Notes under the pieces: model-generated
The model's input: only the letters and a program-made list of their open reading frames with translations
Databases searched by the model: none
Told to the model about the DNA's origin: nothing
IMG/VR virus record: IMGVR_UViG_3300035051_000028
Origin: a virus
Direction: 5' to 3' (one strand)
Length of the DNA stretch: 35,489 nucleotides
Made by a program: the position numbers and the translations under genes
Shown: positions 5,815 through 32,539 of the stretch, piece by piece
Position numbering within the stretch: position 1 is the stretch's first letter
Layout: the number at the start of each line of letters is the position of its first letter

Positions 5815-5822
5815 TAAGTTTA

Positions 5823-9519: not shown

Positions 9520-9971
9520 TCCCACTCTATGACTATGTTGTTTTGAAGAGCATTTGTGTTTTGAATGTTTACTTGTGTGTTTGCTTCTTTACCTAGTACG
9601 CTGTCTTTATTTCGTGATGTTATTCTGCTGTGTGCTTCTAAGTCATTCATAGATATATTATCATTTAATTTCTTATTTGCAAGTGTTTGATTTTTTAATG
9701 CTGAATTTGTAAAAAATAATAAGTGCTTTGTTCTTTCGTTTATTGCAGCTTCAACAGCTGAAACTTCCTTGAAACTTTCTTGCAATAATTCCGCTCTCAT
9801 CGCACTTATGGTTGAAACTTTCTCTTTATGCTTAGGCTCTAAATCCTTAACCATTTTATTAACAGTTGTGTGACTTGTCTTGTATTTTTTTGCTAACTCA
9901 TTATTTGAATATTCTCCAGTATGGTAGTCGGCAAGTAAATCTTCTTTTTGTGTCTCAGTAAGTCTTGCCAT
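9516..9971 (-). CDS. terS: Terminase small subunit (N-terminal HTH)
   Basis: 151-aa ORF translationally coupled to terL. The HTH-like segment is YSNNELAKKYKTSHTTVNKMV. Confidence 0.6.
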   Translation of the reverse strand: MARLTETQKEDLLADYHTGEYSNNELAKKYKTSHTTVNKMVKDLEPKHKEKVSTISAMRAELLQESFKEVSAVEAAINERTKHLLFFTNSALKNQTLANKKLNDNISMNDLEAHSRITSRNKDSVLGKEANTQVNIQNTNALQNNIVIEWE

Positions 9972-10047
9972 TTATAATAACCTCATCTGGTTTTGGTTTC
10001 TTTGTATCATCAAGCCATACTGTTTTTTTATATTTTAGCTCCATCCC

Positions 10048-10311
10048 TTAAACCTCTCCCTCAAAATCAAAAAGCGTTAATCTCTTCTTATCCCATTCAC
10101 TCTTAAACTCTCTTAGCTTCCACATGGGCATATCATATAAAAAGTTTAGTTCTGTTTCTAAGTTGTGTAGCTTTGTCATTTCCAGCCATTCTAGGATATC
10201 ATCTCTGTTGTTAGTGCCATAGCAATATTGTATTATTGCGTCGGCTATCGCTTCTATATCGTCTATTATATCAAATAAGTCATAATAAATGTAGAGAAGC
10301 TCATCTCTCAC
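10048..10311 (-). CDS. Small, very acidic hypothetical protein; first gene of the late unit
   Basis: 87-aa ORF with 21 D/E against 9 K/R residues, counted by hand. Confidence 0.55.
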   Translation of the reverse strand: MRDELLYIYYDLFDIIDDIEAIADAIIQYCYGTNNRDDILEWLEMTKLHNLETELNFLYDMPMWKLREFKSEWDKKRLTLFDFEGEV

Positions 10312-10443
10312 ATTATCATCCTTTTTATTAACTTATACCAACCCGTAAAAGGACGAACAAAAACGGGCTGAGATAAATTAACTGTTCGCCTATAGGCTAG
10401 ACGGTAGCCATCTCTTGCTTCTCAATGGTAGCTGAGCAGTGAT

Positions 10444-10452
10444 ATTATAGCA
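10444..10452 (-). promoter_or_regulatory. Extended -10 promoter TGCTATAAT at the head of the late unit
   Basis: The reverse complement of attatagca is TGCTATAAT. It overlaps the stop of the HNH gene and is followed by a 130-nt leader before 10311. Confidence 0.45.
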
Positions 10453-10801
10453 TAGTTTTAATATATTCTTGACATATTTCATCTGCAAATTCATTCTGCA
10501 GCTCCATACCAAAAGTATCTCGCCATCTCTTCGGGTTTCCGTGTGGACTTAACTCTCCGTTTCTATGGTGTTCACTGCCGCATAAAGGTATCAGTCGCTT
10601 ATGATTCTTGTTGTCTGTGCTATGTAGCTTGACGTGATGCCACTCTATCGGGTCGTTTGGGTTTATCTTGCCACAAACAAAGCATTTATAGTCTTGATGT
10701 TGTAGCCACTCGAGATACTCTTTGTCTTCATCTGTAGTCTTCTTTTTGTTCTTACCGTTGTATTTCGGTTTGATACGATTTGCTTTTATTTTAGTTCTCA
10801 T
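10445..10801 (-). CDS. HNH nuclease, Ref/DUF968-like
   Basis: The motif CFVCG...EWHHV...IPLCGSEHHRNGELSPHG matches the Cys/His pattern of Ref-type HNH proteins. Confidence 0.6.
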   Translation of the reverse strand: MRTKIKANRIKPKYNGKNKKKTTDEDKEYLEWLQHQDYKCFVCGKINPNDPIEWHHVKLHSTDNKNHKRLIPLCGSEHHRNGELSPHGNPKRWRDTFGMELQNEFADEICQEYIKTML

Positions 10802-11174
10802 AAATTTCTACTTTCACACCATTAAAAGCAGCATATTGCTTTCTTGCTTGAATCATGCACACTTGACTATCGTCATTAAATGCTACTCCATTAAGCGCAT
10901 CTAGTATGCTCTTTACTAAATTATCTATATCGGGCTTAGAAGTATGCCATTTAGCATTTTCTTTTTTCTTTTTACTCCAACTCTTAGGAATTTCATAAAA
11001 AAATTCTATTTTCATACTTACTGGAGTAGTTATAGGATTTTTAAATCTTGTCTTAGCCAATAATTTTAATCCATTTTTCCACTCTGTATAATCTTCATTG
11101 TTGTATGTCCCATTTCTTGTTACTCGTGGTCTTGGTGCTGGTTTTGGTCTAGCTGGGTAGTATATATTAATCAT
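10791..11174 (-). CDS. rusA: Holliday junction resolvase RusA
   Basis: 127-aa ORF with the motif SKPDIDNLVKSILDALNGVAFNDDSQV. Confidence 0.85.
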   Translation of the reverse strand: MINIYYPARPKPAPRPRVTRNGTYNNEDYTEWKNGLKLLAKTRFKNPITTPVSMKIEFFYEIPKSWSKKKKENAKWHTSKPDIDNLVKSILDALNGVAFNDDSQVCMIQARKQYAAFNGVKVEIYEN

Positions 11175-11398
11175 CTTATCTCCCTATCATCTTTTTTCCT
11201 TTTATTAAAATAGCGTCTCACCGCATAGCCTCTAATTATTGAAGCGACTGTGTATATCGTTGTTATCTGTAAACTTACGCTGTGTGACTGTTCCACTCCG
11301 TAAAGAGGCAGTACGGTATAGCTTAGTATGTATGAAACGATAAAGCCTATAAAAGTGCTTGTGTTTGCCTCTAAAAAGCTTTCTAGTTTAGTTTGCAT
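11171..11398 (-). CDS. Small membrane protein
   Basis: 75-aa ORF with two hydrophobic segments and a basic C-terminus. Confidence 0.5.
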   Translation of the reverse strand: MQTKLESFLEANTSTFIGFIVSYILSYTVLPLYGVEQSHSVSLQITTIYTVASIIRGYAVRRYFNKRKKDDREIR

Positions 11399-12197
11399 TT
11401 AACATCTCTTTATTCGCTTTTTTGTACATATCTCTTGAGATTTCGAAGCCATAACAGTGTCTGCCTAGCTCCCCACTTGCTCTTAGTGTTGAAGCACTAC
11501 CAGCACAAGGGTCTATTATAACATCGCCCTCATCTGTAAAGATTCTTATTATCTCAGACAAAACAGCTATTGGTTTTTGGGTAGGGTGTATTTTTGGATA
11601 TCTGTTTCCGTCTTTTTTCCACTTGAACCAATTTAGAACCATCTTCCCGTGATTGTTAAACTTTGGAAGCTTTTCTCTATACAAAACAACTGCATATTCA
11701 GAAGCTCCAACTATTTTCATATTTGCCTTTAGTACCTGAGAAGAACTGTCTTTTATAAAAAGTAATGGAAAACTGTTTTTAAAACCGTGTTTTTTCCCAT
11801 ACTCAATAACCATATGCATTTGTTCAAAAGCACAAAAAACTATCATTGCAGGTGCTTTGCCTGTCTCTTTAGGCTCTGGCTTTAAAAGTCTGCTACAAAA
11901 ATGCATATACTCAGCAATATTGAAATTATAATCAGATCCAAAAAAAGCTTTATTTGCTTTTGTGCTTTCCCCGTTCTTGTTATCCCCGCCATTATACCAC
12001 TCAGGGCTTGAGGCATAAGCATTGTTGCCTAGATTGTACGGTATATCTGCGATAATTAACTGAGCCTTTGGTATGTTATACCTCTTAAAGTTTTGAAAAT
12101 TATCATTATAAAATTCAATCCTTATATCTTCTCGCATTGTTAAGCTTCCAGCTGCTAGTGAGTTTTTAGCTTTTCTTTTTTCTGCTACTAATTCCAC
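11388..12197 (-). CDS. DNA methyltransferase (N6_N4 type, beta-class motif order), orphan
   Basis: Motif IV-like IADIPYN comes first. Motif I VIIDPCAGSASTL...GRHCYGFEIS lies near the C-terminus. The start is GTG. No adjacent restriction gene was found. Confidence 0.8.
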   Translation of the reverse strand: MELVAEKRKAKNSLAAGSLTMREDIRIEFYNDNFQNFKRYNIPKAQLIIADIPYNLGNNAYASSPEWYNGGDNKNGESTKANKAFFGSDYNFNIAEYMHFCSRLLKPEPKETGKAPAMIVFCAFEQMHMVIEYGKKHGFKNSFPLLFIKDSSSQVLKANMKIVGASEYAVVLYREKLPKFNNHGKMVLNWFKWKKDGNRYPKIHPTQKPIAVLSEIIRIFTDEGDVIIDPCAGSASTLRASGELGRHCYGFEISRDMYKKANKEMLNAN

Positions 12198-12198
12198 A

Positions 12199-12318
12199 TT
12201 ACACCTCTACATCCAACGCATATCTTCTAACAATAAGTTGATGAAGCTCTGTTAGTTCGTTTTGGCTCAGTTGGTTGAGCAGCTTTTGTATTTTTGTTTT
12301 TATTTTACTTCTTTGCAT
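12199..12318 (-). CDS. 39-aa hypothetical protein (absent from the ORF track)
   Basis: ATG preceded by AAGGAG at a 7-nt spacing. Its stop abuts the methyltransferase start. Confidence 0.4.
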   Translation of the reverse strand: MQRSKIKTKIQKLLNQLSQNELTELHQLIVRRYALDVEV

Positions 12319-12354
12319 TTTAACTCCTTGCCATTATTTTATCAGAACTGGAAA

Positions 12355-12549
12355 CTAATATCCTTGATATATATCAAGAGTTTTAAAGTATTCTCTAATT
12401 TTATCGCTAATCGTCCCGACCTCAACCACTTTGTTATCTTCGCACTTTTTACAAGTATGGCGATGTCCGTCTCTTGACTTGTAGTTTTCTCTAAACTGAT
12501 AGAACCTCTTCTGCTTTTTGCAGAATTTGCAGGTTTTGCAGTTTGTCAT
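12355..12549 (-). CDS. Zinc-finger protein (CxxC-x22-CxxC)
   Basis: 64-aa ORF with C7..C10 and C33..C36. The spacing resembles Ogr/Delta-type late activators. Confidence 0.5.
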   Translation of the reverse strand: MTNCKTCKFCKKQKRFYQFRENYKSRDGHRHTCKKCEDNKVVEVGTISDKIREYFKTLDIYQGY

Positions 12550-12604
12550 TTTTTCAACATCTTTTCAACTTCATAGCTTATCGCTGGTTGGTTGCTGTAT
12601 TTTG

Positions 12605-13552
12605 TCATATTGTTATCCCTACATATCCAGCTACTATTGATACCGCTGTTTTAAAATCTACATTATTTGCTTCTTGTACAAATCCTATCACATCTGTACT
12701 AAGGTCTGATCCAAAATCTTTTATCAGTAAATCAGGAGATATACTCGCAGATGGTGTTTTTTCATTATGTCGATATTTAAACATAAACTTTCTATTAACT
12801 TCATATCCGGACGCTGAAACTATATCTGCAACCAATTCTCTCGTTAAACGGTTTTTTATATCTTGGATAGGTAAGTCGTTCCTTATATTGATATTATGCG
12901 AAATAGGTGCTTTAAAAATAGTTTTTTGCTGTGGTTTATCTACCATCTTTGCGCGCTCTAATCTTTTAAATGTTTCTATAACCTCATTACAGTTAAAAAA
13001 ATTGCCTTTGTTGTAAAAATATTCAGCTCCAAAGAACCCTAAAAAAGCACCTGTTTTTGTGTTTACTTGTTTGTCTATAAATGGATATTTTTTTTCTATC
13101 ATTCTCATAAAATTAAAATACTCATCGTCTTTTGGTATATTGTTGCTTGGAATGATTATTCTAAATCTATCACACTTTAAACCTTTTTTATCTATCTGAT
13201 GTGACTTTGTTGTAGCTAAAAGATACTCATAAGACTTAAATTGTTTTTTGGCTTCTTGGATAGTTAAACCATTATCAATATCTAGGATTATTAAATCTTG
13301 ATATTCATTACTCCAATTCTCACTTTTTTTAATCCCATCTTTGAAAGTAAATGGCGAATACTGACGATAATCTGATTTAACAATGTCTATTAGCTTACTA
13401 AACTCTATGTTTATATTTTTGTAAAGTGGCTCGGCGGTTAAGAACATATTTTTGGATAGTTTACTATTGTTCCATTTTTCTAAATTTAATTCTTTTCCAT
13501 TTACTCCTTGAAATTCCAAAGGTACTTCAAGATAAGAAATATTTACTTGCAT
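12605..13552 (-). CDS. Primase-like replication protein
   Basis: 315-aa ORF with an acidic LIILDIDNG motif. The C-terminal segment EKTPSASISPD..IKDFGSD..DVIGFV resembles a cysteine-less DnaG zinc-finger region. It lies next to an AAA_25 ATPase gene. Confidence 0.5.
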   Translation of the reverse strand: MQVNISYLEVPLEFQGVNGKELNLEKWNNSKLSKNMFLTAEPLYKNINIEFSKLIDIVKSDYRQYSPFTFKDGIKKSENWSNEYQDLIILDIDNGLTIQEAKKQFKSYEYLLATTKSHQIDKKGLKCDRFRIIIPSNNIPKDDEYFNFMRMIEKKYPFIDKQVNTKTGAFLGFFGAEYFYNKGNFFNCNEVIETFKRLERAKMVDKPQQKTIFKAPISHNINIRNDLPIQDIKNRLTRELVADIVSASGYEVNRKFMFKYRHNEKTPSASISPDLLIKDFGSDLSTDVIGFVQEANNVDFKTAVSIVAGYVGITI

Positions 13553-14361
13553 TATAAAACTCCCATTTCTATTTTGTCTTGATATATTGTTTCTTGCACT
13601 TTTATTATTTTAGGCATTACTTTTAGCATTATTTCGTCACTTCCATCAGTCATTTGCCATAAATGTTTTCTAATGCCCCAGTTGTCTTTTTTAAGTCTTG
13701 CGACTCTAAAGCCCTCTTTTGTTAATGCTTCATTTGGAGTATCATCATCATTAAGAGGTATTGTTAATTCATATCTTGCTCTAACCCCATCGTGGAATGC
13801 TGTGGCTCCTCGGCTCGCTCCGTCTTTGTTTGCGTGATGAATTATCAAACTTGTTATTTCTGCTTTTTTTGCCCACTCTGCAAAAGTTTGAATAAATACT
13901 CTTGCCTCACTATTATCATTTTCGTTTCCGCCATAAAAAGCAAGTAATGGGTCAAAGACCGCAAATTTAACATTATTCAAAATTAGAGTTTCGCCTATTT
14001 TATTTATCTCTTCATAATTGGCTTTAAATATTCCGTTCTCTCTTTTTGCTAGTTGTGGAGGCTCATTTATAATCAACATCATTTTTGTTAATGATGATTC
14101 TTTTGTAAGTCCATTTTTTTCCATTTCGTCAAAAGTTGCTCTTACTTGCCCTGGATAATCCTCTGTTAGCCATAGGGCTACGATTTCATCAGTTTCTTGA
14201 ATGTGTTTGTCTGCCATTATTAAACTAAGTCTTGTTTTACCCATCCCGCCACTTGCACTTAGTAGGGTTACTGCATTCTTAGGAATAGGCATAAACTTTT
14301 TTAAGATAAAATTTGCTTCTATTGCTTTTACTTCCGATAAAAATTGATATTTTAGGCTCAT
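13552..14361 (-). CDS. RecA-fold AAA_25 / RepA-like replicative ATPase
   Basis: Walker A SASGGMGKT, Walker B FAVFDPL and the motif IIHHANKDG. Confidence 0.7.
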   Translation of the reverse strand: MSLKYQFLSEVKAIEANFILKKFMPIPKNAVTLLSASGGMGKTRLSLIMADKHIQETDEIVALWLTEDYPGQVRATFDEMEKNGLTKESSLTKMMLIINEPPQLAKRENGIFKANYEEINKIGETLILNNVKFAVFDPLLAFYGGNENDNSEARVFIQTFAEWAKKAEITSLIIHHANKDGASRGATAFHDGVRARYELTIPLNDDDTPNEALTKEGFRVARLKKDNWGIRKHLWQMTDGSDEIMLKVMPKIIKVQETIYQDKIEMGVL

Positions 14362-15014
14362 ATTAAAGACTCCTTTTGTTTCTTGCCTTTATACTTATCT
14401 TCTAAAACTTTTACTAAGTTAGTATCATTCTCTATTAGCCAATCAAAACTAAAAAAAGAACCATTAAGCAGGAAGTCACTCTCTTTTGCTTTTATTATTC
14501 CTAATTCAAACACTCTTTTAAAGTCTTGAAAGTCTTTATGTCTGGCTTGTATCTTATTTCTTCTTTTATCTGTTATCTTTAACACTTTGCTTTTATTGTA
14601 TTTTTCACAAAAGCTATTCCATTCATTTATAAAGAAGTCATAATCAATATATGTTTTTTTATCTGGTTTATTATATGGTATAGGTTGGCTGTTTTCTACA
14701 TCTCCATTGGTTAAAACCTCCAACTCGAGTATGCAGTACCACTTAGTCCTATCGTATTTATTAGCATTATGCTCTCCAGACATAATATACCCATTCTCTT
14801 CTAGTGTTTTTAAAGCATTTTTTATTTGAGTTTCTCCAAGATATGGAAATAGCTCTTTCCAAGCTTTAACGCTGTTATATGTCCAGTAGTTGCCGTCAAT
14901 AAAGTTTTTATTGTTTGCTTTATTTTTACTACACCAGAACTCTAAATTTTTATAAATAATTGCACAATTAACATTTAGTTTTTTTGCCAAGTCTATATCA
15001 AAGTGATGCTCCAT
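14358..15014 (-). CDS. Replication initiator / organiser-like winged-helix protein
   Basis: 218-aa ORF. The N-terminal motif is WTYNSVKAWKELFPYLGETQIKNALKTLEENGYI...YDRTKWY. It is the first gene of the replication block and lies next to a repeat-rich region. Confidence 0.5.
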   Translation of the reverse strand: MEHHFDIDLAKKLNVNCAIIYKNLEFWCSKNKANNKNFIDGNYWTYNSVKAWKELFPYLGETQIKNALKTLEENGYIMSGEHNANKYDRTKWYCILELEVLTNGDVENSQPIPYNKPDKKTYIDYDFFINEWNSFCEKYNKSKVLKITDKRRNKIQARHKDFQDFKRVFELGIIKAKESDFLLNGSFFSFDWLIENDTNLVKVLEDKYKGKKQKESLI

Positions 15015-15060
15015 TATATCCCCTTTATTTTACAGAGAATATTAACTAGTATATTTTTGA

Positions 15061-15303
15061 TTAACGGAAAATTGTCCGTAACTCTCATAAGCCATTTTGT
15101 CATTTTAGTAACCTTTTAGTTACCGCTGTTTGTAATTTTAAGTAGATTTGAAAGATATGAAGAGTAGCGGGGTTCTTCAACAAATAATACTTAACCAAGC
15201 CAAGCGACCCCGCTAAGAGTTATTTGACTTGACTTGATTAAAAATTAATTGTCTATATCTTTATCAGCGTTAGAAAGATATTATCTCTCAATCGCTGTTT
15301 GTA
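15061..15303. promoter_or_regulatory. Repeat-rich non-coding region; candidate origin or operator cluster
   Basis: Contains a palindrome TTAACGGA-n6-TCCGTAAC and tandem TTTAGTAACC/TTTAGTTACC. A 9-bp GC-rich inverted repeat lies at 15165-73/15207-15. TTGAC is tandemly repeated. An 8-bp inverted repeat lies at 15255-62/15274-81. The 11-mer CGCTGTTTGTA occurs at 15124 and 15293. Confidence 0.4.
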
Positions 15304-15324
15304 TTATAGCATAAAAGAGTTAAA

Positions 15325-15501
15325 TTACTCTACGACCTCATAAAATTTATCTAATGTTCCATAGTGGATATGATGGGATTTTTGATTTTTATTTAAAGGG
15401 CGTGTAGTGTAGTGACCATTTCCGCCCATCTTTGAAACAATTTCTATTTTTTTGTCACTTGTTTTTGATTTAAGAATTGTTCCTTTTTTATACTTAGTCA
15501 T
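15325..15501 (-). CDS. 58-aa hypothetical protein (absent from the ORF track)
   Basis: ATG at 15501 lies 2 nt downstream of the preceding gene. The frame is open to the TAA at 15325. Confidence 0.4.
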   Translation of the reverse strand: MTKYKKGTILKSKTSDKKIEIVSKMGGNGHYTTRPLNKNQKSHHIHYGTLDKFYEVVE

Positions 15502-15503
15502 TT

Positions 15504-15740
15504 CTATGCCTCTTGTTCACTCAGTCTATACTCAGCAATATAACTGCCATTGTCAATATTAACTTGCTTTGACTCGATATTGCAGCCGAATCTTTTTAAA
15601 TCGCTTATGCGTGAGCGTAAATTCATACCCCACCCATTTTGAGCGGCTTGTAAGCAAGTAAGACTTTTGCCTGTTTGAAGATATGCTAAAATCTTGCTGT
15701 TTTGTGAGTCTGTTTTGAAACTTTTAATTTTTCCTTGCAT
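15504..15740 (-). CDS. Helix-turn-helix DNA-binding protein
   Basis: The start is placed at the internal MQGKIK to avoid overlapping the upstream gene. The motif SLTCLQAAQNGWGMNLRSRISDLKRFGCNI is a typical winged-HTH pattern. Confidence 0.55.
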   Translation of the reverse strand: MQGKIKSFKTDSQNSKILAYLQTGKSLTCLQAAQNGWGMNLRSRISDLKRFGCNIESKQVNIDNGSYIAEYRLSEQEA

Positions 15741-15741
15741 T

Positions 15742-16056
15742 TTAGTTCTCTTCAATAATAATTTTTTGATTTTTAACAATACTTTTTATCATCCACTCAT
15801 AACCCATAAAACCTCTTGACATTTTTCTATATTGTGTTGCAGTTTTGTTGTTAATTAATTCTACTTTTATTGAAGCACCCCACCCATCACCAAAATTATA
15901 GTAAAACGATTTATCTACAATGTTACAGAGATTATCTTTTTTATATTCAGCTTCTTTAAACTTCTGAATATTACAATAAAAATTACTTTCTCCGCTAAAT
16001 TTTCCATTCCATGACCCACAATTTGGCATACTTATTATAAATGCTAATATTTTCAT
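15742..16056 (-). CDS. Hypothetical protein
   Basis: 104-aa ORF tightly packed in the left-early operon. Confidence 0.55.
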   Translation of the reverse strand: MKILAFIISMPNCGSWNGKFSGESNFYCNIQKFKEAEYKKDNLCNIVDKSFYYNFGDGWGASIKVELINNKTATQYRKMSRGFMGYEWMIKSIVKNQKIIIEEN

Positions 16057-16205
16057 TATTTACTCTTTTTATTTTTACTATCTTTTAAAATTAAAGTGCT
16101 TATATAGTGAGAGCGGTTTTGTATCTCAACTCTCTCTTTTGTTGCACTATCTGCCAGTTTTATAATTTCTTCATCTAAAGAAAGTGTTATTATTTTCTTT
16201 GCCAT
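16056..16205 (-). CDS. Ribbon-helix-helix protein; first gene of the left-early operon and a candidate switch regulator
   Basis: The start is placed at MAKKIITLSLDEE, with AAGGA upstream. The fold pattern is a beta-strand followed by two helices. Confidence 0.55.
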   Translation of the reverse strand: MAKKIITLSLDEEIIKLADSATKERVEIQNRSHYISTLILKDSKNKKSK

Positions 16206-16242
16206 TTCGTTCCTTTTTTTAATTGATTTAAAGAATGATAAC

Positions 16243-16248
16243 ATTATA
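16243..16248 (-). promoter_or_regulatory. Candidate leftward early promoter -10 (TATAAT)
   Basis: The reverse complement of attata is TATAAT, about 38 nt upstream of the RHH start. Confidence 0.35.
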
Positions 16249-16304
16249 TTTATTAAACTAATCTTATTTAAACTTTATACATAGATTAATAATGCTTTAA
16301 GAAA

Positions 16305-16318
16305 TGTTATATTATAAT
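16305..16318 (+). promoter_or_regulatory. Candidate rightward early promoter (TGtTATATT overlapping TATAAT)
   Basis: TGTTATATTATAAT was read directly. It lies back to back with the leftward -10. Confidence 0.45.
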
Positions 16319-16324
16319 TTTCTC

Positions 16325-16640
16325 ATGCGTTTGAAATAAACACATAGGCGAGAGCCTTAAACGAAAGTTTTAAATGACTGCCACGAGTGTGATGCAGTTT
16401 AGGGGGTTGCCACCAGATAGCTTAACTTTTCGATGTAGCACATATTCAGGACTGAGGATACTCGCTCGGTATGTGTTGCACAGAAAAGTTCCTGCAATCG
16501 TTACCAAAGTGGTAGCAAATCTTATAAGTGGTTGCAGGTCATTAAGATTTACAAGAGCCGATTTACAACTAATTATAGTATTAGTTATGCACATCTATTC
16601 ACTACAGAGGCTGTCGGTTCTTATAAGTTTTTGACTTAAT
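16325..16640 (+). ncRNA. Candidate structured RNA or long structured 5' leader of the right-early operon
   Basis: Seven nested helices were found by hand, including a GAAA tetraloop hairpin. Two G-U pairs work only on the plus strand. The region is visibly richer in G+C than its flanks. It ends in a helix followed by TTATAAGTTTTT. Confidence 0.5.
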
Positions 16641-16660
16641 TAAATAAAAAGGATGAAGTT

Positions 16661-16897
16661 ATGGATATGGACGAAAAAAATGCAATGCGAGAAGATATGC
16701 TAAAAGATCAACACCACGAACGAATGATGAGAAGTAACATAGAGTATTTTTGTGAGTACACGCTTGAAAACTTATACATCACGCCTGAAAAAACAAAAGG
16801 GTTGTTTTTGTTTGATGTGGTGGACGAAATGAGAAAGCATTGTAACAGATACGAGCAAGATTTTAACGAGTTTTTAGATTATTTAAAGGAGATATGA
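16661..16897 (+). CDS. Hypothetical early protein
   Basis: 78-aa ORF with an AAGGA Shine-Dalgarno sequence. Confidence 0.6.
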   Translation: MDMDEKNAMREDMLKDQHHERMMRSNIEYFCEYTLENLYITPEKTKGLFLFDVVDEMRKHCNRYEQDFNEFLDYLKEI

Positions 16898-16949
16898 TGT
16901 TAGAGAAGTTTGAAGAGTGGTGTGAGAAAATGGCGGAGAGGTGGCTGTG

Positions 16950-17546
16950 ATGAAAGAGCTATTAAAAGCAAAATCGGAATTTAGAAAAAAAGGAATTGCA
17001 CTTGTAGCAGATAAGCGCAAAGACGGAGCGGGTGGCTCTTGGAAGTTTGCAGGCGAGGACAATGTTATTAAGACTATACAACAGCCGTTAATTGACTGTG
17101 GGCTTGAGGTTGTATCAACTATGAACGAGGACAGTGTAAAAGTGACTTTATGGCACGTTGCAAGCGGGGAGAGTATCGAGTCATCTATTAAACTCCCGCC
17201 AGTAACACCTCGTAAAGATAGAAATGGCAATGAAATGTATCTTGATGCAGAAATTGAAAGAGGTAAGCAGTTTGGATACTGGAGCAGAATCTTAACTATT
17301 CGTATATTGAGCTTAAGCGACATAGACCCTGAAGATATGAATAACCGCCCTATTGATATGAGTGACGATACTGTCGAAATGAGGGCGGAGCTTGACTTGC
17401 TAGTAGGCAAAACAAAAGACGCGGAAGCGACTAAACAGTGGATACATAAAGCTTATAAGGTTAGCCAAGTATCCGAGTTAAACAGTGAACAACTAAAGCA
17501 CGTCATAAACCTCTTGAAGCAAAAATCAAGCAAAGATAGCGTATAA
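16950..17546 (+). CDS. erf: ERF-family single-strand annealing protein
   Basis: The pattern SWKFAGEDNVIKTIQQPLIDCGLEV...LWHVASGE...GKQFGYWSRILTIRILSLSDIDPED fits Erf. I prefer the ATG at 16950 over the GTG at 16941. Confidence 0.6.
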   Translation: MKELLKAKSEFRKKGIALVADKRKDGAGGSWKFAGEDNVIKTIQQPLIDCGLEVVSTMNEDSVKVTLWHVASGESIESSIKLPPVTPRKDRNGNEMYLDAEIERGKQFGYWSRILTIRILSLSDIDPEDMNNRPIDMSDDTVEMRAELDLLVGKTKDAEATKQWIHKAYKVSQVSELNSEQLKHVINLLKQKSSKDSV

Positions 17547-17570
17547 TTATAGAGTTAGTAATTGACAGAG

Positions 17571-17622
17571 GTGGCAGGACATCCTACCCCTTTGCCACTT
17601 CTTTCAAATATTAGGGGTAGGA
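17571..17622 (+). promoter_or_regulatory. Interleaved GC-rich inverted repeats with pseudoknot topology; the second stem covers the Shine-Dalgarno of the next ORF
   Basis: GTGGCA (17571-76) pairs with TGCCAC (17593-98). TCCTACCCC (17582-90) pairs with GGGGTAGGA (17614-22). The AGGAG at 17619-23 is the Shine-Dalgarno for the ATG at 17630. Confidence 0.45.
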
Positions 17623-17629
17623 GCCTACA

Positions 17630-17815
17630 ATGTTAAACAATCAAGAAATAAAAATACCAGCGCTACTTAAAGACTTAGGGATGATATTTCCTACCAGTAA
17701 ATCTAAAAAACAAGTATATCTTGGACTGTTTAAAACTCCTATTGAAGCTGCACTTGCTTATGATAACTATGTGCTAAGACATAATTTAGAACATACTATA
17801 AATGGAGTATTATAA
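17630..17815 (+). CDS. Truncated AP2-domain fragment (possible gene remnant)
   Basis: 61-aa ORF. VYLGLFKTPIEAALAYDNYVLRHNLEHTIN aligns with HIGTFKTKKEAAKAYNDYIDKNNLPHTKN of the 5032..5715 protein. The first two AP2 strands are missing. Confidence 0.5.
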   Translation: MLNNQEIKIPALLKDLGMIFPTSKSKKQVYLGLFKTPIEAALAYDNYVLRHNLEHTINGVL

Positions 17816-18423
17816 TGAAAATTATTCAATGTGAGCAAGGAACGCAAGAGTGGATGGATTATCGAATAGGAGTTCCTACTGCATCAGGCTTTAGTAAGAT
17901 TATAACTCCGGCAAAAGGAGACAAATCAGCATCATACAAAAGTTATATGTACGAACTTATTGCGGAAAAGCTCATAAATGAAAAAACGAATGGCTTTAAG
18001 AGTGAGTTTATGGAACGAGGCAATGAAATTGAACCACTTGCAAGAGCTTCATACGAATTTATTCACGAAGTAGAAGTTAAGCAAGTAGGAATGATTTTCA
18101 ATGACGAAATGACAATAGGCATTAGCCCTGATGGTCTTATAGGTGATGTAGGCGGCTTAGAGATTAAATGTCCTAAACCGAGCACACTTGTTAAGTACAT
18201 GCTTGACGGTGGGCTTCCCTTAGAGTATAAGCCGCAAGTAATGGGTAGCCTTTGGATTAGTGAGCGTGAATGGTGGGATTTTTTAGCGTTTCACCCGTCA
18301 ATGGATTTTTTCCAAATAAGAGTTTATAGAGATGAGGCTTATATCAAAAAGATGGAACAGCGCTTAAACGACTTTGTGGACGAACTTCAAGCTAATTTTG
18401 ATAAGATAAAGAAGTCGAAATGA
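17815..18423 (+). CDS. YqaJ-type (lambda Exo-like, PD-(D/E)XK) recombination exonuclease
   Basis: GISPDGL...GGLEIKCPK motif, 202 aa, adjacent to erf. Confidence 0.75.
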   Translation: MKIIQCEQGTQEWMDYRIGVPTASGFSKIITPAKGDKSASYKSYMYELIAEKLINEKTNGFKSEFMERGNEIEPLARASYEFIHEVEVKQVGMIFNDEMTIGISPDGLIGDVGGLEIKCPKPSTLVKYMLDGGLPLEYKPQVMGSLWISEREWWDFLAFHPSMDFFQIRVYRDEAYIKKMEQRLNDFVDELQANFDKIKKSK

Positions 18424-18863
18424 AACTAAATCTTAAAAAGCAATACGGGCAGCTTATACCATATTCTAATGAGGACAAAGAGAAGCTTGATAGACTCAAG
18501 GACGGTGCTATTTACGAGATTGACATTAAAGACGCCGATATGCGAACCGTTACACAAAACAGAGCGATTCATCTATGGTGCGATATGCTAGCAAACACTA
18601 TGAATAATCAAAGGATGGTTATCCAAGATGTTATTAAGCTCAATACAAAATGGGATATGCTAAAAGTCAAAGAGATGATCTTCAAGCCCGTAGTAAAAAG
18701 TCTCTATACAAAAGACAGTACTACGAAGTTAAATAAAGATGAGTTTGAGCTTATTATAGATACAGTTATAAGAGCTTTGAGTTATAAGGGTGTTGAGAAT
18801 ATACCCGACTTTCCAGACCGTAAGAGTTTGGAATTTGAAAATAAAAAGGAAAAATATGAATAA
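18420..18863 (+). CDS. ninB: NinB/Orf-family recombination mediator
   Basis: RTVTQNRAIHLWCDMLAN aligns with lambda NinB RSLDQNRKLWACLGDV. STTKLNKDEFELIIDTV aligns with STSRMRVGEFAELLELI. Confidence 0.55.
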   Translation: MKLNLKKQYGQLIPYSNEDKEKLDRLKDGAIYEIDIKDADMRTVTQNRAIHLWCDMLANTMNNQRMVIQDVIKLNTKWDMLKVKEMIFKPVVKSLYTKDSTTKLNKDEFELIIDTVIRALSYKGVENIPDFPDRKSLEFENKKEKYE

Positions 18864-19365
18864 TGTACAAATTCTTGGAACGATAACTCGTGACTTAGAG
18901 ATGAAATTTACCAGCGGTGGCACTGCAATTCTAAGTTTTGGAATTGCTTACAACGAAAAACGAAAACAGCAAGACGGGAGCTATGGCGATATAGCGCACT
19001 TTTTTGATGTAACAGTATTTGGTAAAAAAGCCGAAACTGTGAATCAGTGGTTTAATAAGGGTTCTCGGATTCTTATTCAGGGCTCTTTAGATTACCAATC
19101 GTGGGTTGACAAAGACGGAAGCAAAAGAAGCAAGGTCGGTATAAAACTAAATGATTTTGACTTCATAGACAAAAGAGAATCAGGTAACGCTCAAACAAAT
19201 CAAGCACCGCAGCAAGGCGGTTACAGCGGAAATAACCAACAACAGCCACAAAGCTATCAAGCAAATCACACGGCTTATAGAGAGCCACAAAGACAAATGC
19301 CGGATGCAAGAGCTTTGCCTAGCATTGACATAGACGATTCTGATATTCCTTTTAATCGGGGTTAA
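18856..19365 (+). CDS. ssb: Single-stranded DNA-binding protein
   Basis: OB-fold N-terminus (MNNVQILGTITRD...), a Gln/Gly/Pro-rich linker and an acidic tail DDSDIPF. The start is placed at the ATG at 18856. Confidence 0.88.
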   Translation: MNNVQILGTITRDLEMKFTSGGTAILSFGIAYNEKRKQQDGSYGDIAHFFDVTVFGKKAETVNQWFNKGSRILIQGSLDYQSWVDKDGSKRSKVGIKLNDFDFIDKRESGNAQTNQAPQQGGYSGNNQQQPQSYQANHTAYREPQRQMPDARALPSIDIDDSDIPFNRG

Positions 19366-19464
19366 GTGCTACCAGAACAAAGAAGCACTAAATAGTCTTG
19401 ACTGCGGTCATAGACTTTAAAATGTTTACATGCAATAATTGTAGATATTAAAAAAAGGAATGAG

Positions 19465-19947
19465 ATGAAAATTTTATTACTAACTCTGCTTACTTGTTTA
19501 TCCCTCTTTGGTTTAGAGAGAGAGTGGTCTGAGATGAACGATAGGCAAAAAAATAATATTCTTATGGCTTATACAAAATCTAAAGAGTTTGATTTAGGCT
19601 ATACAATGGCTGCGATTATGTGGCAGGAGAGTCTTGGAGGAAAGTATAAAGTAAACCTTCAAGACCCTAGTTGTGGAGCGTTCCACAATAATATAAACAC
19701 GATTATGGCAAGACACTCTATCGAGAATACATCTTTTAATAGAAATAGAATCTGCCAGATGCTTATCGACAATACAGATATTGCTTTAACAGAAGCTATA
19801 ACAGAAATTCAGTACTGGTTACATGAGAGAAACGGCAGCTTTATTGAAGCATGGGCTTCTTATAATGGTGGCTGGAAAATGAACAAGTCTTATGCAGAGA
19901 ACATAAGAAAAAAGATTGTATTTCTAAAAAAGATAATAAAGGATTAA
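19465..19947 (+). CDS. Secreted lytic transglycosylase (SLT domain)
   Basis: Signal peptide MKILLLTLLTCLSLFG. Catalytic motif MWQES. Motif ASYNGGW (AYNxG-like). Confidence 0.65.
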   Translation: MKILLLTLLTCLSLFGLEREWSEMNDRQKNNILMAYTKSKEFDLGYTMAAIMWQESLGGKYKVNLQDPSCGAFHNNINTIMARHSIENTSFNRNRICQMLIDNTDIALTEAITEIQYWLHERNGSFIEAWASYNGGWKMNKSYAENIRKKIVFLKKIIKD

Positions 19948-19958
19948 GAGATGAAAAA
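19927..19958 (+). repeat. Start-junction cassette A, copy 1 (32 nt identical to 20595..20626)
   Basis: aaaaagataataaaggattaagagatgaaaaa spans the stop of one gene, the Shine-Dalgarno and the ATG of the next. Confidence 0.9.
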
Positions 19959-20604
19959 ATATGAATTAGTTAATCAAAGAGAAGATGGATTGTGGCAAAT
20001 CAAAGCTTTAAAAAGTTTTAGGGATGTGAAAATAGGAGAACTTGGTGGATGGGTAAAGTCTGAACAAAATCTTTCACATACTGGTAATGCTTGGGTATCT
20101 GGTGATGCTAGGGTATTTGGTGATAGTGCTAGAATATCTGGTAATGCTAGGGTATTTGGTAATGCTACAGTGTTTGGTAGTGCTAAAGTGTCTGGTAATG
20201 CTAGAATATCTGATAGTGCTACAGTGTTTGGTAATGCTAGAATATCTAATAGTGCTAAAGTGTCTGGTAATGCTTGGGTATCTGGTAATGCTTGGGTATT
20301 TGGTAATGCTAGAATATCTGATAGTGCTAAAGTGTCTGGTGATGCTTGGGTATCTGGTGATGCTAGGATAATACAAAATAGTGATTACACTGTATTTAAA
20401 AATAACTTAACATCACAAAGATATTACACTTACATATTTACAAACGACTTTTGGGTAATAGGATGTTTTAGGGGTAACACCGATGAACTCAAAAAGCATT
20501 TAGAAAAAAATGGTAATGAGTTACAAAAGATAGAGTACAACATGGCTATAGAATATGTACAAAAACTAAAAGAAATTAAAGAAAAAATGGCTGTAAAAAG
20601 ATAA
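19951..20604 (+). CDS. Hexapeptide-repeat (left-handed beta-helix type) protein of unknown function
   Basis: 217-aa ORF with 16 consecutive units of the G[ND]A[RWKT][VI][SF] type, flanked by unique N- and C-terminal domains. Confidence 0.7.
   Translation: MKKYELVNQREDGLWQIKALKSFRDVKIGELGGWVKSEQNLSHTGNAWVSGDARVFGDSARISGNARVFGNATVFGSAKVSGNARISDSATVFGNARISNSAKVSGNAWVSGNAWVFGNARISDSAKVSGDAWVSGDARIIQNSDYTVFKNNLTSQRYYTYIFTNDFWVIGCFRGNTDELKKHLEKNGNELQKIEYNMAIEYVQKLKEIKEKMAVKR
20083..20373 (+). repeat. 18-nt tandem repeat (16 units, one of 21 nt) encoding the hexapeptide repeats
   Basis: ggtaatgct(agg/tgg/aga)(gta/ata)t(ct/tt) units were read directly. Longer sub-blocks recur nearly identically. 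Confidence 0.9.
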
Positions 20605-20632
20605 TAAAGGATTAAGAGATGAAAAATGATTT
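20595..20632 (+). repeat. Start-junction cassette A, copy 2
   Basis: Identical to copy 1 over 20595..20626 and to copy 3 over 20606..20632. Confidence 0.9.
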
Positions 20633-20789
20633 AAGAGATTTCGAATTAGATGTTAGATTTTCGGGCGAAGATGTATTTATAAACAATGAGATTTACAACA
20701 AAAAAGAAATATTGGAATTAGTCAAAAAGCTGGCTAATTGTAGTGCAGAATTATTAGCTGCAATAGATACTAGAGATTTAAAGGATTAA
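20619..20789 (+). CDS. 56-aa hypothetical protein (absent from the ORF track)
   Basis: Starts in cassette A (MKNDL...) and ends with KD-stop inside the next cassette. Confidence 0.45.
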   Translation: MKNDLRDFELDVRFSGEDVFINNEIYNKKEILELVKKLANCSAELLAAIDTRDLKD

Positions 20790-20806
20790 GAGATGAAAAA
20801 TGATTT
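20780..20806 (+). repeat. Start-junction cassette A, copy 3 (27 nt)
   Basis: aaaggattaagagatgaaaaatgattt is identical to 20606..20632. Confidence 0.9.
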
Positions 20807-20879
20807 TATTTTATACGCACTTGTAGTTGCAAATGTCGCATTAGTAGTTATAGTTATTTTAGAGGAGATGTCGAGATGA
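20793..20879 (+). CDS. 28-aa hydrophobic single-TM peptide
   Basis: MKNDFILYALVVANVALVVIVILEEMSR. It starts in cassette A copy 3, and its stop overlaps the next ATG (ATGA). Confidence 0.4.
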   Translation: MKNDFILYALVVANVALVVIVILEEMSR

Positions 20880-21115
20880 AGAGTTTAAGAGTGTTCAAGG
20901 ATGAGGATTTAAAGAGGAGTTCAAGACAGAACCTTGAGCTTAAGTTGGCGATGGTTGAAACCAGTCCGGACTTAACAAGTGAGGAAAAGGATCTTAATGT
21001 AAAAAAGATTCGCTTTTATCTTAATGGATGCGTGCATTATACGCCTAAAGAGGTGTCGGATGAAATCGCAGCGGGTGCAGCTGATATAGACGATATTAAT
21101 AAAAGTTGGTATTAA
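20876..21115 (+). CDS. Hypothetical protein
   Basis: 79-aa ORF coupled to both neighbours. Confidence 0.55.
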   Translation: MKSLRVFKDEDLKRSSRQNLELKLAMVETSPDLTSEEKDLNVKKIRFYLNGCVHYTPKEVSDEIAAGAADIDDINKSWY

Positions 21116-21202
21116 ATGAGCAAATGGAAATATGAAATAATATACAGTGTTGTATTGATAACTGTATATATTACAACTTATTTTATAGCAAAATACAGCT
21201 AA
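21116..21202 (+). CDS. 28-aa hydrophobic single-TM peptide
   Basis: MSKWKYEIIYSVVLITVYITTYFIAKYS. The ATG follows the upstream TAA directly. Confidence 0.35.
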   Translation: MSKWKYEIIYSVVLITVYITTYFIAKYS

Positions 21203-21253
21203 GTAAACAAAATGCTCATAGATTAGAGATAATTAATTTTATAGGAGAGAAAA

Positions 21254-21538
21254 ATGTTTAATGTGTATGATTTAAGAAAATATACTAAAAATGCAGATGA
21301 ATTACATAAGTATATAAGACAGCGAATGACCCCTAAAACAAAGCAGATGAAAGTTAGAAGTTGCTTTAATGGCAAAGAAAAATTTAGCTTGTTAAAAGTT
21401 CCGCACTATTCTTTAGATTTTTGCATCAAAGAGGCAAAACAAGTTATACTAAAAAATAGAAATGGGCGTGTGAATATAGCAATATGGACAGAGATAATAG
21501 ATGCACTTGAAAGGATGAAAAATGAGAGAGATAATTGA
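21254..21538 (+). CDS. Hypothetical protein
   Basis: 94-aa ORF with an AGGAGA Shine-Dalgarno sequence. Confidence 0.55.
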   Translation: MFNVYDLRKYTKNADELHKYIRQRMTPKTKQMKVRSCFNGKEKFSLLKVPHYSLDFCIKEAKQVILKNRNGRVNIAIWTEIIDALERMKNERDN

Positions 21539-22046
21539 AGAACTAAGAATATGGCGTGAAGCTAGAAATATGCAGGATAATGAGTTTTTTGTAGAAGAGC
21601 AGGTTGCTAGTATGACTGATGAGTGTAAAGAGGTATTACTTGCGAAAACAGTTGAGCATAAAGCGGTAGAGGTGTGCGATATCGCTATTTTTGCTATAAA
21701 TGGTTTAGGCTTGTTGAAAATGGAATATAAACCAAAAGCTACAAAATGGAGCGGTTTGCCGTCGATTATGAGAGCATTGTCTAATATCTTAGAAGAGAAC
21801 AGCGAACGAATGGCAGGCGTTGAGCTTAACTACATAATCAAGTTTTGTGAAAACACTGTTACAGAACTTGGCTACGACTTTAAAAAGATGATGATGGAAA
21901 AGATAAAAGTGATTAGCAGCAGGATGCAAGACCCTGAGCAAGCTAAAGACTGGGAGCTAAACGGAGCATCTGGGAAGTGGAAAAAATTTGAGGGGCAGGA
22001 CAAAAACACCCTCTATTATGCAAACTTTGAAAGCTGTAAATTATGA
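21522..22046 (+). CDS. MazG-like all-alpha nucleotide pyrophosphohydrolase
   Basis: The acidic motif spacing EEQVASMTDECKE...EVCDIAIFA follows the EExxE...ExxD pattern. Confidence 0.5.
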   Translation: MREIIEELRIWREARNMQDNEFFVEEQVASMTDECKEVLLAKTVEHKAVEVCDIAIFAINGLGLLKMEYKPKATKWSGLPSIMRALSNILEENSERMAGVELNYIIKFCENTVTELGYDFKKMMMEKIKVISSRMQDPEQAKDWELNGASGKWKKFEGQDKNTLYYANFESCKL

Positions 22047-22330
22047 TAATAACAAAAGCAGATATTGAAAGAGCAGGATATTCTAAGGAAGAGTCCCGCG
22101 TTTTTATAACAAGCGCTATTGTTAATAGCAAAAACAATGGCTATACAGTAAAAATGGGTAAAAATATACAAGGATGTATTTCTTGTTTGGCTCACTTCGA
22201 TTTGGATAAATTTATCGAATGGCAAAAACAAAAAGTAGAAAATGTGAGACCGAACAATGTGAAACTTGCTAAACATCTACTTGAAAAACTTGTATTGCTT
22301 AAGAAGAGGATAGGGGAGAGGGATGAGTAA
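22043..22330 (+). CDS. Hypothetical protein
   Basis: 95-aa ORF with an ATGA overlap. Confidence 0.55.
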   Translation: MIITKADIERAGYSKEESRVFITSAIVNSKNNGYTVKMGKNIQGCISCLAHFDLDKFIEWQKQKVENVRPNNVKLAKHLLEKLVLLKKRIGERDE

Positions 22331-22562
22331 GATAGATTTTGTACAAACATTACATATAGGAAATCCTAAAGCACTTATGGAGGTTATTGGTTTTTTCGTG
22401 GAAACCTACTATGAAACCTCTGGTCAGTACGTGTTTTGGGAAAAGCCTGTGGGGGATGAAACTATATTTGATACTAGAGTAAAAAAGATGAAAGTAGATA
22501 AGTGTCAAAAACTCTGTTTTGAAAAAATGCAGGAAATAAGGAAAGGATTGTTTGATGAGTAA
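22323..22562 (+). CDS. Hypothetical protein (MSKI start family)
   Basis: 79-aa ORF. Its start context ATGAGTAAGATA is shared with the next gene. Confidence 0.55.
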   Translation: MSKIDFVQTLHIGNPKALMEVIGFFVETYYETSGQYVFWEKPVGDETIFDTRVKKMKVDKCQKLCFEKMQEIRKGLFDE

Positions 22563-22564
22563 GA
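22541..22564 (+). repeat. Start-junction cassette B, copy 1
   Basis: gaaaggattgtttgatgagtaaga matches 22781..22804 at 23 of 24 positions. Confidence 0.85.
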
Positions 22565-22779
22565 TAATTATAGAGAATAAATGCGTATGGCTAAAACTAA
22601 GTACGGCAATAACTTGTATAGATGAAGTGATAAAAATGGGTAAAATATCAAAGGGACCATATGGTGAACAATATTGTCACTTAACTACATTCACTTTTAA
22701 AGCAGGGAAAATTGGAGTTAGTGCAGACAAGAGGAATAGTGGGACACATAAGTTTATAGTATTTGAAATGCACGAGTAG
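22555..22779 (+). CDS. Hypothetical protein (MSKI start family)
   Basis: 74-aa ORF. I prefer the ATG at 22555 over the TTG at 22552. Confidence 0.55.
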   Translation: MSKIIIENKCVWLKLSTAITCIDEVIKMGKISKGPYGEQYCHLTTFTFKAGKIGVSADKRNSGTHKFIVFEMHE

Positions 22780-22780
22780 A

Positions 22781-22804
22781 GAAAGGATTGTTTAATGAGT
22801 AAGA
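22781..22804 (+). repeat. Start-junction cassette B, copy 2
   Basis: gaaaggattgtttaatgagtaaga. This copy is intergenic up to the ATG, whereas copy 1 lies inside the upstream coding region. Confidence 0.85.
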
Positions 22805-23127
22805 AAACAATAAAAAGATTAGCATTTAAACGATATGTGACAAATAAGTGTCATGATAACTACTACTTTTTAACCAAACACATGAACGACGCTACACTTG
22901 CGCTTGCTTTATCTCTTACGGAAAATCAAAGAACACTTGAGAATTGGGTTGTTTTTATAGCGAGAGACTTGTTTATGCTTCCTACCAAAGGGGATGCAAA
23001 TTTTTATAAAATTGGTAAAACAATGTGGGATTTTTTCAGATTAACAAATAATATAATAAATTATATGTTTTACAAATGCGGAATTAAAAGAGAAGATAGA
23101 GATTTAGAGAGGTTTCTTACGGCTTAA
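22795..23127 (+). CDS. Hypothetical protein; last gene of the right-early operon
   Basis: 110-aa ORF. Its 3' end overlaps the convergent endolysin gene by 11 nt. Confidence 0.55.
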   Translation: MSKKTIKRLAFKRYVTNKCHDNYYFLTKHMNDATLALALSLTENQRTLENWVVFIARDLFMLPTKGDANFYKIGKTMWDFFRLTNNIINYMFYKCGIKREDRDLERFLTA

Positions 23128-23527: not shown

Positions 23528-23528
23528 A

Positions 23529-23858: not shown

Positions 23859-23900
23859 ACTTCCTTCTCCCTCCGTTTTGTGTTTTTATTATAACATGTT

Positions 23901-24320: not shown

Positions 24321-24329
24321 TTCGCTCTC

Positions 24330-32487: not shown

Positions 32488-32539
32488 TAATATCCTTTTT
32501 TCATATTATAGCGAAATTAAAAGAATTTATTAAATACTC

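Follow-up and report, generated by a model that had tools for sequence, protein, structure and literature searches.

A probable non-coding leader RNA built of exchangeable hairpin modules behind an early promoter of a tailed phage

The gap between the two divergent early operons of a tailed phage very probably harbours a conserved, structured non-coding leader RNA that is built of hairpin modules. As judged from aligned relatives, the element is a mosaic of modules exchangeable between phages and not one conserved 300-nt fold, and the pattern of substitutions argues that its structure is selected at the RNA level on the plus strand. With regard to its role, we tentatively favour a structured plus-strand leader at the 5' end of the rightward early mRNA, which would be recognised by a double-strand-specific factor.

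Genomic context and promoter

The whole stretch of DNA analysed, termed the window, is a 35,489-bp contig carrying terminase, portal, tape-measure, primase, methylase and replication-initiator genes. Its early operons diverge from a gap at 16206-16660; this agrees with the 455 bp given in a preliminary description of this DNA, and the gap lies between a ribbon-helix-helix (RHH) gene and the gene of a 78-aa protein. The Arc/CopG-like RHH regulator (16056..16205, minus strand; PHROG 4738, transcriptional repressor) heads the leftward operon, in which a winged-helix protein and replication genes are also found, the latter at a distance of 1.3 kb leftward of the element. The true start of the RHH gene is MAKKII at 16205, the same Met at which its homologues of 47-55 aa begin. 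The rightward operon comprises the 78-aa protein, Erf, YqaJ exonuclease, NinB and SSB. The closest proteins of cultured phages belong to phages of Gram-negative hosts and share only 32-47% identity. MAG labels of related contigs conflict (Bdellovibrionales, Cloacimonas, Gammaproteobacteria), and an Erf profile search of genome contigs gave a single match, a 38-kb MAG-labelled contig identical to the relative L003.

A promoter scan placed the rightward early promoter at 16286..16318 on the plus strand, with a -35-like TTAATA at 16286-91 and TGtTATATT / TATAAT at 16305-18. The block AGAAATGT..TA(t/c)AAT..CTCATGC is common to the window and its relatives L003, L013 and L001. Because the promoter region is conserved in relatives down to CTCATGC, we infer a transcription start near 16325. 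The AAAAGGATGA..ATG context of the first rightward gene recurs at a second divergent promoter (32585-32603); a cluster of short matches at 32586-32655 consists of a shared Shine-Dalgarno context and an ordinary small gene.

Directly 3' of the rightward promoter, a plus-strand structured non-coding RNA had been proposed, and our analysis upholds this proposal. G+C content reaches 0.39-0.40 over 16300-16599, compared with 0.24-0.27 on the left flank, so that the reported enrichment is real. At the other end, the rightward operon begins with the 78-aa gene, whose Shine-Dalgarno sequence AGGA (16650-53) and start codon (16661-63) occupy 16650..16663 on the plus strand. The predicted fold leaves both unsequestered, and the distance from the last hairpin to the Shine-Dalgarno sequence and start codon is about 20-30 nt in the window as well as in L013, L015, L267 and L315.

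Stability and strand of the fold

The plus strand of 16320-16640 is predicted to fold with -95 kcal/mol (z -4.19), a value that none of 100 shuffles attained, and the minus strand with -78.7 kcal/mol (z -2.73). For the leaders of relatives, z values of -3.70 (L013), -6.25 (L267) and -4.59 (L003) were obtained. In all 12 hairpin modules tested, which stem from four phages, the promoter-sense strand is the more stable one. The preliminary description had assigned the element to the plus strand on account of G-U pairs; the 12 sense-stable modules and two invariant G-U pairs in modules of the M4 type (Type II, see below) bear out this argument. GNRA and UUCG tetraloops occur among the hairpins.

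Of the helices described previously, H3, H5, H6 and H7 were recovered with ensemble pairing probabilities of 0.89-0.99. The GAAA-capped hairpin H2 fared differently, having a low probability in the single-sequence ensemble; it is nonetheless kept by compensatory changes in relatives. Helix H1 (16339-46/16470-77 and 16348-52/16461-65), which was thought to enclose a single multi-helix fold of 300 nt, is not supported: its probability is about 0, and its 3' strand (16470-77) belongs to the 3' arm of M2, a much stronger local hairpin. What takes the place of the enclosed fold is a chain of independent hairpin modules which have been exchanged between phages.

Hairpin modules

Three long hairpins, M2, M3 and M4, follow a 5' domain of small hairpins, all on the plus strand. 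M2 (16424..16490; inverted repeat I1) is a Type I module with pairing probabilities of 0.96-0.99. It consists of a basal helix (16424-31/16483-90), a GA/CA loop (16432-33/16481-82), an upper helix (16434-46/16468-80) and an apex (16447-67), and is scored by the Type I covariance model R1 with 43.9 bits (E 1e-6). M2 is near-identical in L267, the sole change being located in the apex.

M3 (16491..16538) corresponds to the former H4 and H5; in the MFE fold, 16491-99/16530-38 surround 16500-06/16510-16. The pairing probability is 0.92 for H5, and H4, while present in the fold, reaches only about 0.5 in the ensemble. The large loop of M3 has the palindrome CUUAUAAG (16520-27). This hairpin was found only in the window and L267, where one loop substitution separates the two copies and the stems are without informative variation; both differences between the window and L267 in M2-M3 are thus at unpaired positions.

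M4 (16544..16631), a Type II module, holds the former H6 and H7 and is 89% identical in L015. Its parts are a basal helix (16544-51/16624-31), a C-A mismatch (16552/16623), an upper helix (16553-62/16613-22) and, as apical sub-hairpin, H7 (16567-73/16580-86). No difference between the window and L015 alters both sides of a pair in M4. Two one-sided changes, C-G to U-G and G-U to G-C, keep the pair, although the opposite strand would have a mismatch in either case; the uppermost pair of the long helix is broken in L015 (A-C), and the remaining differences lie in loops.

Both module types share one architecture, in which an AU-rich basal helix of 8-12 bp and an upper helix of 10-13 bp are separated by a small conserved loop or mismatch and carry a variable apex. 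The stems also conserve sequence, namely UG...CA closing pairs, the GA/CA loop and the invariant G-U pairs. Type I comprises M2 of the window, L013-B and L013-C, L003-1, L003-2 and L003-3, and one module each of L264 and L001. Its basal helix has 8-10 bp and the consensus AAAGCUUU; the layout further includes an internal loop (GA/CA or 3x3), U-A and G-C closing pairs that do not vary, an upper helix of 10-13 bp and a free apex. Type II comprises M4 of the window, L015, L267-M4, L013-A, L267-A and a compact version in L315, and is characterised by UUAAGAUUU... / ...AAGU(C/U)UU arms with a single mismatch. U4-5 runs are found in the terminal Type II modules (window, L015, L267, L315) and are absent from the internal copies L013-A and L267-A.

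The modules are mis-aligned by MAFFT alone, and the arms were trimmed to a common geometry. In seven Type I modules from four phages, with apices replaced by GAAA, 98.3% of the cells are paired, compared with 40-53% when the arms are slid against each other; 9 of the 17 pairs have changed on both sides, and the covariation score was reached by none of 500 shuffles. The Type II set (window M4, L015, L267-M4, L013-A, L267-A; 20 pairs) has 93% paired cells versus 35-54% when slid, and seven pairs changed on both sides. These figures come from only 3-7 independent sequences per element, and the preselection of arms as inverted repeats inflates the percentage paired, not the shared geometry or the compensatory changes. 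Covariation speaks for the M2- and M4-type stems, and for P3 of the 5' domain. The proposed H1 is without a complementary partner in L013.

Model R1 matched leaders of related phages only (35-45 bits), including the L001 cassette, which resides at another position, and detected no module in 372 kb of unrelated viral DNA. As a further Type I candidate, M1 (16364-16424) was considered and rejected: R1 gave it only 15 bits in L013/L269 (E 3.2), and in L315 its closing helix is out of register.

Mosaic evolution among relatives

Relatives were gathered through flanking proteins and DNA patterns, and all are uncultivated phage contigs. In about nine, a promoter of this kind is followed by a long stretch of non-coding DNA (L013/L014/L269, L015, L003, L019, L264, L266, L267/L268, L315 and L001). 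The RHH gene adjoins the RNA element in the window, L013, L015, L019, L264, L266 and L267. The leader measures between 165 and 560 nt among the phages and about 335 nt in the window.

Pairwise comparisons best illustrate how these leaders are composed. Positions 16245-16440 of the window are 86% identical to L013, which has about 375 extra nt after the shared part and then a paralogue of the window hairpin. L015 matches the window only over its last 114 nt. In L267, M2-M3 are shared at 98%; the 5' part is different and M4 has diverged. In L315, a diverged 5' domain is followed directly by a compact terminal hairpin. The L001 cassette (5615-6076) lies inside an operon behind its own promoter. 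Modules have thus been reshuffled, duplicated and lost between phages, with insertions nested within hairpin apices and varying copy number, and they are always co-oriented behind the same type of promoter.

The genes after the cassette vary as well: we found the 78-aa protein, a peptide of 30-58 aa, Gp49-like, Gp157, a 333-aa protein and a pentapeptide-repeat protein. Conversely, L316 and L016 have the same 78-aa gene with a short leader and lack the element, and relatives found through Erf (L001-L009) are mostly without it at this position. The leader family is rare. From the short leaders of L316 and L016 it follows that the element is dispensable for expression of the 78-aa gene; for this reason, an accessory function or one in trans fits at least as well.

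The 3' end of the element

In the preliminary description, H6 and the sequence after it were taken as a layout compatible with a terminator. It is not a canonical one: no terminator-like site was found in 15900-17000, and the U5 run at 16628-32 is part of the extended M4 helix, on its 3' side. Without a terminator, transcription should continue into the first gene, and the element would act as a leader. Six terminator-like sites were counted in 8000-24500, compared with 7.4 expected, and none on the plus strand of 16660-22000. The lack of a detectable terminator at its end weakens both functions suggested previously, a stand-alone sRNA and a leader of the terminator/antiterminator type. The operon downstream likewise has no excess over chance of sites that a processive antiterminator could override.

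Proposed function and alternatives

In the mechanism that we propose, the plus-strand 5' leader RNA would head the rightward early transcript of this phage of about 35 kb. Each module has roughly two turns of helix with an internal loop between them and would be bound by a double-strand-specific factor, RNase III-type processing being the first candidate and a hairpin-binding protein the second. As a result, the stability, the 5' end and the expression of the early mRNA might be adjusted, or stable hairpin RNAs might be released. Double-strand-specific recognition appears most likely because two-turn helix, internal loop and conserved stem sequence are combined in the modules; the conserved stem sequence and the invariant G-U pairs indicate that a protein recognises the modules, and not that they serve stability alone.

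Early transcripts of phages are known to contain processing signals, such as the hairpins of the R1.1 type in T7 and the RNase III-sensitive hairpin in the N leader of lambda. The element resembles these signals in that hairpins of about two turns, with lower stem, internal loop and upper stem, occur in a phage early RNA, one of them immediately upstream of the ribosome-binding site of the first gene. It differs from them in the lack of sequence similarity and in having tandem hairpins, some with large multi-branch apices, and its cleavage is predicted only. The geometry is that of M2 with 8 bp, a 2x2 loop and 13 bp, and of M4 with 8 bp, a 1x1 mismatch and 10 bp; the same two-turn geometry recurs in 12 modules. 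Bacterial RNase III substrates have about two helical turns, often with an internal loop that limits cutting and leaves a protective hairpin behind (PMC1540722). The fit relies on this bacterial rule, and the specificity of the host enzyme may differ. Tandem hairpins without genes between them count against RNase III, as this is not the classical layout of T7 and lambda, and the 5' domain P1-P5 is left unexplained. Taking these points together, we regard processing by RNase III specifically as possible, if doubtful.

A different role would be that of a stand-alone or processed RNA acting in trans; it might serve as a decoy or sponge that captures a host RNA-binding factor, a nuclease or a defence sensor. 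Such an RNA would be the first that the phage transcribes and would be made in large amounts, and any transcription that continues into the operon would be incidental. Several features of the mosaic agree with this idea: promoter and RNA form a self-contained cassette before unrelated genes, which in L001 has its own promoter inside an operon, and the downstream gene does without the element in L316 and L016. Modules repeated with conserved stem sequence are what one would expect of repeated binding sites, and the restriction of U4-5 runs to terminal Type II modules is likewise in favour. We nevertheless consider a trans-acting RNA unlikely, given that a canonical terminator is absent from 15900-17000, that a recognisable binding motif was not found in the element (there are, for example, no recurrent GGA loops), and that neither complementarity to the rest of the phage genome nor repeats of the element elsewhere in it exceed chance.

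The put RNA of phage HK022, which has about 70 nt and two hairpins, is needed for reading through terminators. If the element were a processive antitermination RNA of this kind, its hairpins would bind RNA polymerase and confer terminator resistance. Like put, it is a structured RNA right after an early promoter, co-oriented with it in every relative, which needs no dedicated downstream gene, and its internal loops and stem sequences are conserved. In comparison by description, however, it is modular and dispensable; with leaders of 165-560 nt it is 3-8 times the size of put, its number of modules varies, and relatives with the same operon lack it. Moreover, there are no evident terminators to be overcome, as downstream sites show no excess and the plus strand of 16660-22000 has none. 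A put-like function is therefore quite improbable.

Mosaic organisation, variable copy number and insertions nested in apices are also properties of DNA-level elements. Nested palindromes resembling MITE, REP or BOX elements, or a replication origin, would make the RNA structure incidental, and the palindromic module ends (AAAGCTTT in L003) as well as the replication genes to the left are compatible with this. The pneumococcal BOX, enterobacterial BIME/REP and Neisseria Correia elements are intergenic mosaics, some of which are transcribed and cut by RNase III, and they share with the element modular, hairpin-forming units in variable numbers. In contrast to those elements, of which tens to hundreds of copies are scattered in either orientation, we see one cassette per phage, in promoter sense and with compensatory stem evolution. 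A DNA-level origin of the signal is remote for further reasons: the strand asymmetry extends to 12 of 12 modules, invariant G-U pairs and the GNRA and UUCG tetraloops are present, the upper stems compensate instead of both arms being conserved, the orientation to the promoter is constant, and there is no second copy in the 35-kb genome and none in the 372 kb of unrelated viral DNA.

The 5' domain

The region upstream of M2 folds into the small hairpins P1-P5 (16329..16414, plus strand). It is 84-86% identical to L013/L269, more diverged in L315, and conserved in three lineages. P1 (16329-32/16338-41) has a U-A pair replaced by G-C between the window and L013. P2 (GGC-GAGA-GCC, 16347-56) is invariant. 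In P3 (AAAC-GAAA-GUUU, 16359-70), which is the former H2, two pairs have changed on both sides among the window, L013 and L315. P4 (16377-84/16389-98), the former H3, is mis-registered in the MAFFT alignment; by inspection, its CAC/GUG core is kept, and the outer helix and the loop vary. P5 pairs 16405-07 with 16412-14. An alternative long-range helix, LR (16355-62/16397-404), excludes P3.

P2+P3 and LR are mutually exclusive and have similar energies. Based on four sequences, 100% of the cells are paired in P2+P3, with two pairs changed on both sides, and 96.9% in LR, with one double and two one-sided changes. Shuffle controls of these pairings (39/500 and 99/500) were not significant, so that neither is statistically secure from four sequences. 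The constellation is reminiscent of a riboswitch or attenuator in which P2+P3 compete with LR: each pairing is compatible with all homologues, and alignment columns 43 and 45 co-vary with both partners. Such a switch is, if anything, still more remote than a DNA-level element. Besides the scarcity of sequences, neither pairing reaches a terminator or the Shine-Dalgarno sequence, a conserved multi-helix junction is missing, no Rfam riboswitch matches even at E<=10, and the downstream genes are unrelated to metabolism.

Open reading frames within the element

Long frames are open on both strands, an 86-aa frame on the plus strand (16374..16634) and a 74-aa frame on the minus strand (16370-16594); they are by-products of the raised G+C content, and we regard both as spurious. 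That one of them is a protein-coding gene can effectively be considered refuted: in the closest relative, L013, the 86-aa frame reads MTATSVMQFRG and ends after 11 codons with a stop at codon 12, the alignment of the two leaders contains indels of 1, 3 and 4 nt, the 86-aa frame has no Shine-Dalgarno sequence, and neither frame matches a Pfam or PHROG family. In three identical public copies of this DNA the gap is free of called genes, and there is no protein record for the 86-aa product. The non-coding nature of the 86-aa frame had already been suggested in the preliminary description.

Relation to known RNA families

T7, lambda and HK022 provide the classical cases of early phage transcripts with structured leaders and processing hairpins; to our knowledge, very few such families have been catalogued outside model phages. 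The covariance models of Rfam 15, applied with gathering thresholds, did not match the leader in the window or in 17 related loci; the preliminary description, too, had matched the fold to no known RNA family. At E<=10, the gap gave chance-level matches only (an miRNA, a snoRNA and Ms_IGR-8). A comparison with 50,697 cultured-phage records, by BLASTN for the gap and by tBLASTN for Erf, was without a match. Exact and degenerate DNA patterns of the 5' domain retrieved from IMG/VR and a metagenome collection the known contigs plus chance matches only; a pattern of the 3' arm gave 44 chance matches, none of them a module, and a 14-base module pattern proved too degenerate. In the literature, we found no described equivalent.

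Of the large phage-associated structured RNAs in Rfam (GOLLD, ROOL, HEARO), GOLLD and ROOL are, like the element, phage-borne, non-coding and highly structured; none of the three covariance models matched it in the window or any relative. The arrays of ToxI, the antitoxin of type III systems, consist of near-identical 36-nt units, a terminator and the gene of an endoribonuclease toxin. The element is repetitive, too, but its repeats are degenerate two-copy repeats and hairpin paralogues, the downstream gene varies, and there is no toxin gene. We see in it a new RNA family that is rare and not listed in Rfam, though its general kind, the structured phage early leader, is familiar.

Its mode of evolution is unusual: much as protein domains do, the modules undergo shuffling, duplication and nesting, and compensation preserves their stems. 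A bolder reading, which we think rather unlikely, is that the portable promoter plus hairpin-module array represents an undescribed class of phage early ncRNA. The exchangeable two-turn modules, with their conserved G-U pairs and GA/CA loop, would then offer a host machine (RNA polymerase, RNase III, a dsRNA-sensing defence or a decoy target) several copies of a docking site, and the 5' domain would toggle between two conserved folds. Should docking of RNA polymerase, of RNase III or of a defence sensor be borne out, the modules would amount to an RNA part that is compact and portable, and to a new case of early control at the RNA level in phages whose low-G+C hosts are uncultivated. Should they be merely stabilising hairpins, what results is a sound, ordinary annotation, that of a non-coding leader in place of a gene.

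In the Rfam search of the window, a tRNA at 7989-8075 was the sole match, and a tRNA/tmRNA search gave only a tRNA-Ser at 7986-8075.

Pairing alternatives and the AUG of the hairpin modules

The palindrome CUUAUAAG occurs twice in the leader RNA of the window, namely in the loop of hairpin M3 (16517-16528) and in the 3' arm of the Type II hairpin M4 (16620-16631). These copies can pair with each other over 12 nt (92% complementary) in competition with the basal helix of M4, which makes their pairing a possible alternative fold. In the related phage contig L267, the M4 copy reads CUUGUGAG, and pairing with the M3 loop is still feasible via G-U pairs.

In every Type I module, an AUG is located immediately 3' of the internal loop, e.g. 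as AUGUAG at 16433-16438 of the window. A start-stop AUG-UAG is formed in M2, the Type I hairpin of the window, and in module L013-C; in the other Type I modules, the AUG opens ORFs of 2 to ~16 codons. Because this AUG lacks an upstream Shine-Dalgarno sequence, it is probably a reflection of the conserved A plus UG closing pair rather than a sign of translation.

Leaders and putative further RNAs in related phage contigs

L003 contains three Type I hairpins in succession (2677-2932), whose junctions have the palindrome AAAGCUUU in common. The 3' end of a stem doubles here as the 5' start of the next one; thus, either the formation of one basal helix excludes that of its neighbour, or the junction palindromes are available for intermolecular pairing. 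A UUCG-capped hairpin is located at 2471-2496 of the same contig.

Leaders with other hairpin sets were found behind homologous genes of the ribbon-helix-helix regulator in L019 (2555-2895, minus strand), L264 (3136-3500, minus strand), and L266 (1208-1526, minus strand). A long-range helix with a compensatory change (AGAGGGC/GCCUUCU versus AGAGAGC/GCUCUCU) is common to L264 and L266; in L019 as well as in L013, a small ORF containing the motif Y(T/S)YAELCRMKK comes after the leader. A promoter of the same type (TGTTACAAT) together with a hairpin-module RNA lies within the rightward operon of L001 (5615-6076), with NinB on one side and, on the other, a pentapeptide-repeat protein that contains an extended (ADLRS)n array; therefore, the cassette changes its genome position.

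Further G+C-rich, apparently non-coding islands of related phages (L002, 2178-2300; L004, 2316-2440; L005, 2570-2680; L003, 3280-3560; example sequence GGGGAGCTTTTGCCGGACTTCCC...CCGTCCGGCAAGAGG) gave no Rfam match at gathering thresholds and look like additional unclassified structured RNAs.

Contigs with these phage genes (those of L003/L143, P0007, and P0009) have been deposited under the conflicting MAG labels Bdellovibrionales, Cloacimonas, and Gammaproteobacteria; they are probably binned phage genomes.

Other features of the window

The only Rfam match within the window (52 bits) is a phage-encoded tRNA-Ser with anticodon GCT and a long variable arm (7986-8075, minus strand), whose gene separates the portal gene from the terminase gene. 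At 32488-32603, a second region of divergent promoters contains the near-consensus promoter TTGACA-17-TGTTATAAT and the same ribosome-binding context, AAAAGGATGAAAAAATG, as the 78-aa gene downstream of the leader; a small gene (ATG at 32601) follows directly, with no structured leader in between.
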